Source: Burkholderiales bacterium (GTDB lineage: Bacteria; Pseudomonadota; Gammaproteobacteria; Burkholderiales; Burkholderiaceae_C). From it: a stretch of DNA of 64,000 nt. The stretch spans positions 1,848 through 65,847 of the forward strand of contig JANOXU010000267.1 of the NCBI GenBank assembly GCA_031418595.1. Direction: 5' to 3'. Position numbers and translations under genes: made by a program. Each line of letters begins with the position of its first letter. The first letter of the stretch is position 1. This document shows, piece after piece, positions 55,300-55,802 of this stretch. The notes beneath the pieces are model-generated. The model had not been told where the DNA came from and searched no databases. It was given only the letters and a program-made list of their open reading frames with translations.

Positions 55300-55740
55300 A
55301 TGGCGAGGATCGACATGCCTGAAATGTTGCAAATTTTGGCGCCACTGGTGGTAAAGGAACACGTCAGCCTGGGCGGGCTGAAGAGCGCGCAGCGCCAGGC
55401 CGTGCTGGCCCTGGCGGCCAGCGCGCTGGCCAGCGGGCAGGTGGTCAGCGAACCGCAGGTCAACGCCGCACTGAAACACTTCCTGGCTGAAGCCGGTGGC
55501 TTCATCGGCGTCGACCATGTCGAGCTGCGCCGCTGGTTGGTCGACATGGGCTGGCTGGCCCGCGATGGCTGGGGTCGCGAATACCGGCGCGTGCCGCAGT
55601 TTGACTTGCCGGCTGAGCACGCTGCAATGGCAGCCGATTTGGCCGCGGTGAACCTGCCTGACTGGGTGGCTGGCTTGCGCGCCGGCGTGCGGGCCCGGCG
55701 CACCATGCGCCGCCAGGCTTGGGAGTTGCGCAGCGCATGA
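55300..55740 (+). CDS. DUF2087-family protein (start 55300 or 55315)
   Basis: SEPQVNAAL...[18 protein letters not shown]...Y motif. Confidence 0.8.
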
Positions 55741-55802
55741 GCCCCGACCGGCCGCCCGAAGGGGCTCGCACCGAAGTGCGCAGCACGAAGGCAACCCAAT
55801 GA
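55737..55802 (+). repeat. 62-bp REP-like insert flanked by duplicated ATGA, forming a 21-codon ORF ([21 protein letters not shown]) coupled at both ends
   Basis: ATGA at 55737-55740 (DUF2087 stop) and 55799-55802 (tadA start). Stems GCCCC/GGGGC and CGCAC-CGAA-GTGCG. Confidence 0.7.

Follow-up and report, generated by a model that had tools for sequence, protein, structure and literature searches.

The 64,000-nucleotide (nt) stretch of a Burkholderiales genome analysed here (the window; contig JANOXU010000267.1 of assembly GCA_031418595.1, positions 1,848 to 65,847) carries a short insert at the junction between a gene for a DUF2087 protein and a tadA-like gene for a tRNA adenosine deaminase. 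We consider this insert likely to be a copy of a short (59–66 nt), non-autonomous mobile repeat of Burkholderiales of the Comamonadaceae/Sphaerotilaceae type, gained at the ATGA overlap of the two genes after the split from the closest sampled relative and bringing its own Shine-Dalgarno (SD) sequence and start codon. The upstream gene, taken at the maximal extent of its open reading frame (ORF), spans 54907–55740 on the + strand, to which all window coordinates below refer, and ends in the stop codon TGA at 55738–55740; Pfam PF09860 (DUF2087) matches its product over 55261–55737 (E 3.5e-12). The product of the downstream gene (55799–56359; 186 residues) matches MafB19-deam (E 6.7e-36) and dCMP_cyt_deam_1 (E 1e-27), as a TadA-type deaminase, and the Pfam matches thus bear out both of the gene identities proposed in an initial annotation made from the letters of the window alone.

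An ATGA at 55737–55740 is followed by 58 nt and then by a second ATGA at 55799–55802, the layout which that annotation had described. The ATG at 55737 (ATG1) opens a mini-ORF of 21 codons without internal stop, the TGA of which (55800–55802) lies inside the 3′ ATGA and overlaps the present tadA start codon, ATG 55799 (start2); the coordinates of the ORFs therefore agree with the earlier claim that the mini-ORF is coupled to both genes. An open frame of this length is by itself compatible with chance (estimated at ~0.6 in sequence of 66% GC), and what sets the insert beyond chance is the evidence from the family described below rather than the lone open frame. From the census of the family and its empty sites, positions 55737–55802, including both ATGA ends, represent one A-type unit with a period of 62 nt, and the inserted DNA comprises 62 nt that may equally be placed at 55737–55798 or at 55741–55802, the two being indistinguishable. 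The unit carries the SD sequence GAAGG (55787–55791) 7 nt 5′ of start2. The 5′ ATGA (55737–55740), in which the DUF2087 stop codon overlaps ATG1, corresponds to the single ATGA of the related genome G371, and is presumably the original junction together with the original start codon of tadA. A GGGAG at 55721–55725, 11 nt 5′ of ATG 55737, reads as a possible weak native SD of that original start and is kept at the empty tadA site of G371. No promoter-like or terminator-like sites were seen in 55500–56000, and a promoter or terminator role was rejected as no consensus sites are present; an Rfam scan of 55650–55900 at a permissive threshold returned only a chance match to mir-8932 (E 6.5).

The repeat family and its target

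The 5.5-Mb draft genome of the host was searched by BLAST and then by iterated nhmmer with the 66-mer of the window as query. This gave 82 nhmmer matches (E ≤ 0.01), including 62 complete units, with both ends, at 56 loci; the genome-wide search with tabulated flanks and frames that the initial annotation had proposed thus finds the family at gene junctions. Units are 59–66 nt long and read, from 5′ to 3′, NTGAGC (ATGAGC in ~90%), a GC-rich 5′ half, the motif CCGCAGTGCGCAGCAC, an SD sequence GAAGG/GGAGG, a spacer of 6–8 nt and [A/G]TGA. Four subfamilies are set apart by their 5′ halves and by their usual lengths, which are 62 nt for A (to which the window copy belongs), 65 nt for B, 60 or 59 nt for C and 62 nt for D. 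Their common 3′ half is read in different frames by the different subfamilies: the DNA is conserved, the peptide is not.

The family extends well beyond the host. A scan of one genome per species with a core 22-mer yielded at least 118 loci in Variovorax, Rhodoferax, Hydrogenophaga, Ramlibacter, Acidovorax and Polaromonas as well as in Xylophilus, Curvibacter, Methylibium, Rubrivivax, Aquabacterium, Ideonella and other records, and among the matches listed all 150 units at these loci have the same anatomy. Pooled with the host genome these matches give 171 loci and 196 units, to which the totals below refer, and the SD is kept in nearly all of the ~196. An exact 19-mer of the family was present in 50 of 301 sampled genomes of the host family, representing 42 of 201 genera, against none for the reversed control. 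That similar repeats recur at gene starts in Rubrivivax-type genomes, which the initial annotation had put forward for checking, is confirmed by the scan and by this sample. Units are co-oriented with the downstream gene. Two or three scored units stand in array at 24 of the 171 loci, always head to tail, and a run of four spaced exact matches occurs in G316; seven of the tandem arrays consist of unlike units (65–79% identity), for example D+C, C+A and B+C.

The position of the units was compared with gene calls from an approximation based on GC at third codon positions (GC3). This gene finder overcalls (7901 ORFs), and the baseline figure of 774 NTGA junctions in the host genome is for that reason an upper bound. 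Start2 opens a long high-GC3 ORF at 137 of the 171 loci, the sequence ends at three more, and in most of the remaining 31 the unit is followed by more units, of degenerate form, or by a spacer ORF of very short length. Copies at random intergenic positions, which the initial annotation had named as an observation that would speak against it, are accordingly not what is seen. The first TGA is the stop codon of a long high-GC3 upstream ORF at 118 loci. In the host genome a co-directional ORF ends within 40 nt upstream at ~85% of loci, which places the family within operons. Of all gene starts, no more than 15% are exact-overlap junctions (P = 4e-13 for their enrichment at units). Against NTGA starts the enrichment is modest, exact overlaps reaching 57–69% at units against an upper limit of 40% among starts with A as the next base (P = 0.007 for the host genome and 2e-14 for all loci). 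From these comparisons the target appears to be defined less by a coupled junction as such than by a start codon with an A directly after it (at minimum TGA, with ATGAGC preferred). The proposal of a class of coupling-preserving repeats stands in that the stop/start arrangement is kept at those 118 loci, and needs amending in what the repeat appears to seek. Codon 2 after start2 is AGC at 71 of the 137 loci (52%) compared with 13% at ordinary NTGA junctions (P ~1e-27), an excess which points to a TGAGC-like sequence as preferred target.

Units are not always flush with the gene, because at C178:13957–14050 in the host genome and at L126:4903–4990 an extra mini-ORF of five codons (MSNRP and MNQET respectively, each followed by a stop) lies between the terminal ATGA and the real gene start.

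Filled and empty sites

The DUF2087–tadA junction of G371, whose flanks are ~91% identical to those of the host genome, reads ...CAGCGCAGCGCATGACGGCAGAGCGAGAACAA and has no insert; the junction sequence GCGCAGCGCATGACGGCAGAGCGAGAACAA gives the single-ATGA state. The canonical ATGA overlap which the initial annotation had predicted on removal of 62 bp therefore exists in nature. Other genomes of the genus also lack the insert at this junction, which is ATGA in L003, GTGA in L004, L006 and L018, TTGA in L010 and L023, and a 12-nt spacer in L002. As the junction is empty in relatives, the tadA copy represents a gain in the host lineage, a direction of change favoured by parsimony over the eight relatives. 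A second site of this kind in the host genome, C16:24011, holds two unlike units where L152, L153, L159 and L163 have an ATGA or GTGA overlap. Further along the window, 560 nt 3′ of the insert, the tadA stop codon overlaps the start of an LD-carboxypeptidase gene (56356–57270) in a plain ATGA (56356–56359), an unoccupied target of like kind.

Exact 16-mer sites number 31 in the host genome and 31 in G371, compared with 0–9 in 59 other genomes of the genus, 29 of which have none. When 20 loci of G371 were compared with the host genome, three could not be assessed (L185, L187, L195), three were shared (L178 with two units, L189 and L196) and 13 were apparently absent from the host genome by the spacing of their flanks. 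Nine of these loci have a clean empty site in the host genome, here written with the short repeat that flanks the unit set between slashes: GCG/ATGAGC/ATG, GGC/ATGA/AC, GAC/ATGAGCC/AAAC, TTGA/ATGA/ACG, GGT/TTGAGCG/CA, ACC/ATGA/CCC, GCC/TGA/TGAAC, GGC/ATGAGCC/TGG and GCC/ATGA/TGC. The flanking repeat thus ranges from TGA, the shortest, to ATGAGCC, the longest. At C42 the host genome has two units and G371 one. Judged by these filled and empty sites, the family is recently mobile.

The 5′ N of NTGA is the first base of the native start codon, and the 3′ N is supplied by the unit. A 4-bp target-site duplication was considered and rejected, the two bases often being different (ATGA...GTGA in 59 units). 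At L190 (G371:C473), compared with C143:6390–6394 in the host genome, the native TTGA stands at the 5′ end and a CTGA at the 3′ end, and the old TTG start, by in-frame fusion, is the only one from which the downstream gene can be read. Four G371 copies are odd or ambiguous. L194 (G371:C630) is a 60-nt unit within an ORF, open in the frame of its host gene, to which it adds 20 residues in the manner of an intragenic Rickettsia palindromic element (RPE); its empty counterpart in the host genome (C185:16179–16182) reads CAC GAG CGC, with neither ATG nor TGA. The L184 copy lies in a leader without a TGA, that at L182 appears to split an ORF, and that at L177, compared with C247, occupies a GTGA site at which the native base at the ends is ambiguous.

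One unit has entered another repeat. Family X, which lies outside the window, is ~85 nt long, with at least 17 copies that are 87–92% identical (C155:2366–2448, the tandem C220:679–838, C221:34986–35075, C77:3832–3907, C37:16141–16219 and some 12 more), and shares the TGA...SD...ATGA design. It reads (C)TGAGAGCGCCCCCAAACCTGTCGCTACGCGCCAGGCCCCCCGAGGGGGC-ATG-AGTAAAGTAGCCAAGCGACATTTACTC-ATGAG and consists of a TGA head, a GCCCCC/GGGGGC hairpin doubling as SD, and an in-frame inverted repeat of ten codons that ends in ATGA. At C144:14383–14444 a 60-nt unit of the present family lies within a copy of X, exactly at the internal GGAGGGGGC-ATGA of X; the real gene start at this locus (MRARLNCALVLV..., signal-peptide-like) is the terminal ATG of X further 3′. 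Taken together with the arrays of unlike units, this insertion points to repeated, sequence-directed insertion.

The family is also connected to the other junction insert of the window, the 43798 element, with which the initial annotation had seen no obvious similarity. Composite units contain a nested hairpin module of 70 nt (..GGCCTTCGGCAGGCGACAGNCAGTCCGCAGGGACTGNCTGTGTCCGGCCTCAG) between GGCCGCC and CCAAGG, which has 29 nhmmer matches in the host genome and is ~84% identical to 57 nt of the 43798 element (window positions 43844–43900). As this module occurs in both, the two junction inserts of the window are linked, and the earlier statement does not hold for the family as a whole. Composite copies were found at L183, L188 and L191 of G371 and at C11:42058, C182:23949, C168:16701, C111:12813 and C1:7517 of the host genome.

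Reading frame and hairpins

The lengths of the units obey a frame rule. With the period defined as the distance from the first to the terminal NTGA, division by three leaves a remainder of 2 in 127 of the 196 units, of 0 in 65 and of 1 in four; 59, 60, 62, 63, 65 and 66 are the common lengths, and 58, 61 and 64 are almost missing. Read from ATG1, 102 units stop in the terminal TGA (relay), 28 stop at most 30 nt upstream, mostly in TGATGA, 61 run in frame into the gene as an N-terminal extension of ~20 residues (fusion), and five pass out of frame across start2. The term ‘relay ORF’ chosen in the initial annotation is thus apt for about two-thirds of the units (102 + 28) and fails for the 61 of 196 that fuse in frame with the gene. 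To allow for copies that are not independent, indel patterns were counted against the nearest subfamily consensus. Of 55 distinct length-changing patterns, 51 lead to an allowed length class and four to the forbidden one (P = 5e-6). Single-nucleotide length changes run 17:1 in the allowed direction, deletion being favoured in subfamily C and insertion in A, B and D.

On this evidence the length classes bear the mark of selection on the frame that begins at ATG1. A bias of this kind would be expected if ribosomes initiate at the old start codon and have to be kept from an out-of-frame run over the new one; it supports the idea of a coupling-preserving repeat in a broader form, by relay or by fusion. 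Translation from ATG1 would thus be expected to occur, and tadA is presumably now expressed from start2, with or without the relay. After insertion the upstream gene would still terminate at the first TGA, and the downstream gene would receive from the unit a fresh ribosome-binding site and start codon; since the unit brings its own SD and start codon, the interrupted gene should still be translatable. In units of the relay type, such as the window copy, ribosomes from the old ATG would pass through the unit and end at its terminal TGA, right over the new start; in the fusion type they would read on into the gene, adding ~20 residues. Units sending ribosomes out of frame may be nearly missing because only non-disruptive insertions survive, or because only such units spread. 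For tadA itself the insert is probably of little consequence except for the new initiation region. A fusion-type unit is present in an existing protein record, that of phnK at L200 (NZ_LR594669.1 439074–439737; Variovorax sp. SRS16 plasmid 4), where the RefSeq gene starts at ATG1 of the unit and the protein carries a 20-residue N-terminal extension, the repeat itself being unannotated. Here the phnJ stop codon lies in the same ATGA as ATG1 of phnK, and the native sequence 7 nt 5′ of ATG1 is GGAGGAGG.

Both small hairpins noted in the insert by the initial annotation prove to be real and have the support of covariation. Stem-loop 1 (55738–55768) has arms at 55738–55745 and 55761–55768 which form 8 bp, including the UG of AUG1, around a 15-nt loop, GACCGGCCGCCCGAA. 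Among 28 A-type units from many genera, 96.9% of the cells are paired; pair 7/27 varies as CG in 13, GC in seven, AU in two and UA in two, pairs 5/29 and 8/26 are also compensated, none of 500 shuffles reaches the covariation score and slid controls collapse. Hairpin 2 (55776–55786; arms 55776–55779 and 55783–55786) has the form GTGC-GCA-GCAC with a G-N-A triloop. Its covariation was evaluated on copies of the host genome only, because the cross-genus sample had been selected with that motif. These copies include GTGC/GCAC, ATGC/GCAT, GCGC/GCGC, GTCC/GGAC and AGGC/GCCT arms around the G-N-A loop; three of the four pairs are compensated, and again no shuffle out of 500 reaches the score. The U2–G32 pair is invariant and G–U pairs are scattered elsewhere, from which we conclude that the folding strand is the sense strand, either as RNA or in single-stranded DNA. 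In the predicted fold hairpin 2 is extended by pairing of CC (55771–55772) with GG (55790–55791); the fold thus joins CC (or UACC) to the GG (or GGUA) within the SD of the element, and as these outer pairs never vary, they lend no support to masking of the SD. The hairpins may serve mobility and/or mask the SD.

Several points weigh against the reading of the window insert as a recently gained copy of a mobile, start-codon-seeking repeat. Exact stop/start overlap is missing at ~30% of the loci, and 25–32% of these non-overlap loci have an SD-like motif before ATG1 compared with 11% at random ATGA. A few copies lie at a plain stop codon, within an ORF, in a leader or away from any TGA, which makes the targeting a preference and not a rule. 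The frame statistic is drawn from copies that are not fully independent and takes the consensus as ancestral, and the cross-genus sample favours units in which hairpin 2 and the SD are intact, both being covered by the search pattern. Thermodynamic z-scores of folding are modest (−0.8 to −2), which is why covariation was used as the structural evidence. Individual differences between G371 and the host genome may reflect precise loss instead of gain. Checks of the Y1 genes, which covered the two PF01797 genes of the host and 61 genomes of the genus, identified no mobilizing gene.

Mode of movement and related elements

How a mobile repeat of this kind would reach its sites admits several explanations. 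That it is a start-codon-homing element is a tentative proposal which we regard as possible, if some way short of likely: a machinery would recognize initiation regions (SD-like sequence plus ATGA/TGAGC), at the level of DNA or RNA, and paste in a self-repairing cassette in which the hairpin-flanked SD and the relay ORF keep or enforce coupling. Together with family X and the 43798-type element, the family would then belong to a guild of stop/start-junction repeats and represent a natural ‘bicistronic design’ part that is spreading through Comamonadaceae genomes.

A route without any dedicated enzyme, which we hold to be unlikely, would consist of replication slippage and microhomology-mediated template switching or gene conversion, in which the ends of the unit (ATGAGC... 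and SD-N7-NTGAGC) pair with similar ribosome-binding sites and starts, and tandem arrays act as donors. The match of variable length between target and unit end would fit such a route, as the direct repeats of TGA to ATGAGCC always correspond to the unit's own 5′ end; the strong excess of AGC after start2, the near-identical tandem units with their difference in copy number (C42) and the insertion of one unit at the SD and ATGA of another repeat are also in its favour. However, homologies of 3–7 nt are very short to account for ~30 new loci in each lineage, compensatory evolution of the hairpins is not needed in a passive process, and the lineage-specific expansion (31 sites in two genomes compared with 0–9 in 59) looks like active bursts.

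The family might instead be no selfish DNA but an RNA element under positive selection that serves the host, as a portable initiation cassette or regulatory leader, with hairpin 2 masking the SD to enforce coupling, binding a global RNA-binding protein or protecting the mRNA. This, too, we judge improbable. The constant sense orientation at the 5′ ends of genes, the predicted pairing with the SD, a frame constraint implying that translation through the unit matters and retention in many genera would all be accounted for. Yet the same junctions work without the unit in close relatives, its distribution is patchy and specific to lineages, the genes on either side are unrelated in function, and to this are added the invariance of the outer CC–GG pairs, the lack of an Rfam match and a peptide that is not conserved, the subfamilies reading their DNA in different frames.

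Distinctly improbable, in our view, is a REP/REPIN-like or IS200/IS605-derived miniature element (PATE-type) moved as single-stranded DNA by a Y1 HUH transposase or RAYT that recognizes both hairpins and cleaves at (A)TGA on both sides, its location at gene starts resulting from a tetranucleotide target and purifying selection. The family has two subterminal hairpins tolerant of G–T/U wobble on the sense strand and short fixed sequences at the left flank, (A)TGA, and right end, NTGA, with a terminal redundancy that would hide any duplication. Moreover, the core of hairpin 2, GCGNAGC, has the sequence of d(GCGNAGC), a DNA mini-hairpin of very high stability, and by this analogy movement as single-stranded DNA stays attractive; the host genome also has two PF01797 (Y1) genes (C91:31066 and C16:2955). 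A link to these was nevertheless rejected, since no repeats were found around either gene and elements and Y1 genes do not co-occur: of 61 genomes of the genus 11 have both, 21 elements alone, including some with 6–9 copies, 16 Y1 alone and 13 neither. There is furthermore no GTAG motif and no inverted REP pair, units stand only head to tail, the extended TGAGC(C) repeat is atypical of this mechanism, and ATGA alone, with ~30,800 sites in the genome, cannot account for a near-exclusive location at gene starts. Finally, a functional small protein or tadA-specific leader peptide encoded by the 21 codons, suggested by the open frame and its start and stop coupled to both neighbours, is close to refuted, as the same DNA occurs at ~56 unrelated host loci, the unit is absent at the tadA junction of all eight relatives examined, and frame shifts between subfamilies change the peptide where the nucleotides are conserved.

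For the preferred reading, a mobile repeat that brings its own SD and start codon, literature was searched in two ways: a full-text search with the DNA and peptide strings of the repeat returned no paper carrying the sequence of the family, and a keyword search gave only MIRU, BRE and REP2 as analogues. Neisseria REP2 resembles the family in having a ribosome-binding site and ATG but carries a promoter too, and REP2 and the Borrelia IR-A/IR-B repeats are promoter-bearing and head transcription units (PMC3184786), whereas the present family has no promoter-like site and lies mostly within operons, on the stop codon of the preceding gene. With REP/BIME and REPIN-RAYT systems it shares short, abundant, hairpin-forming and lineage-specific, sometimes mosaic, repeats. 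It differs from them in its strict orientation at the 5′ ends of genes, in having two different hairpins, no GTAG and no inverted pairs, and in the absence of a flanked RAYT gene or of co-occurrence with Y1. RPEs, which were reportedly described by Ogata et al. in 2000, are likewise small repeats readable in frame that add residues to host proteins, as do the fusion-type units and L194. They lie mainly within coding sequences, without an SD/start cassette, and in the present family intragenic copies are the exception.

The Beta-proteobacterial repeat element (BRE) of Bordetella, also present in Polaromonas, Delftia, Rhodoferax and Acidovorax and left open as to function (Hot et al., 2011; PMC3110155), is by sequence at most a distant relative. 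Both are GC-rich intergenic repeats of Burkholderiales, in variable tandem arrays and with some copies overlapping ORF ends or lying within ORFs, and they have in common a GGGCCGCCC(C)AAGG core and a GCGCAGCG...GGGG 3′ part; L089:3138–3206 is a variant that bridges the two. BRE is, however, 75–91 nt long, carries T-runs at the ends, has a GCCCCC-N3-GGGGGC hairpin at its centre and is defined by more than 70% identity to the Bordetella query, and neither ATGA ends nor an SD or start-codon rule is reported for it (PMC3110155). Local alignments cover a 12–15-nt core, with scores of 18–30 for the family consensus units and 34–39 for the bridging variant, and nhmmer with the published BRE sequences gave no match in the host genome; with this short common core alone, identity with BRE was rejected. 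The Polaromonas table of the BRE supplement, which is garbled, gives full-length alignments of ~71–81 nt and hence a different, longer unit.

Beyond its relatives, the family bears on annotation and on operon design. In annotation pipelines the unit silently becomes a 20-residue N-terminal extension of proteins, of which Variovorax phnK is an example, or is called as junk mini-ORFs. As a naturally optimized cassette for coupling and ribosome binding, the unit could be borrowed for the design of operons.

The closest known analogue is the mycobacterial interspersed repetitive unit (MIRU) of Supply et al. (1997), likened here by description and not by sequence. In the passages of PMC12548453 and PMC3184786 that describe them, MIRUs insert at start codons with tetranucleotide direct repeats, contain an internal ORF coupled at −4, are thought to have little effect on expression and have a mechanism of mobility that is open. 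Both families consist of direct repeats of 40–100 bp that are dispersed and in short tandem arrays of variable copy number, lie between the genes of operons in the orientation of the flanking genes, and have a small ORF overlapping the neighbouring stop and start (−4), which here applies to the 102 of 196 units stopping in the terminal NTGA. Filled sites have short direct repeats in both, tetranucleotides in MIRUs and TGA to ATGAGCC here. The differences are that MIRUs belong to Actinobacteria and the present family to Betaproteobacteria, that the latter carries an explicit SD and start cassette and two covarying hairpins with G-N-A loops, and that one-third of its units are in-frame N-terminal extensions and not relay ORFs; no description of a depletion of 3n+1 lengths in MIRUs was found in the literature looked at. 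The way in which repeats of the MIRU type reach start codons and spread has been a question since 1997, in mycobacteria that are slow to handle. The same behaviour is seen here in fast-growing, tractable bacteria of soil and water (Variovorax, Acidovorax, Delftia-type relatives, Hydrogenophaga), with copies by the dozen in a genome, filled and empty sites that are clear between genomes of 91% identity and, in the forbidden 3n+1 class, a built-in read-out of the kind expected if ribosomes use the old start codon. By this analogy, the family is a newly recognized case of MIRU-like behaviour in another phylum.

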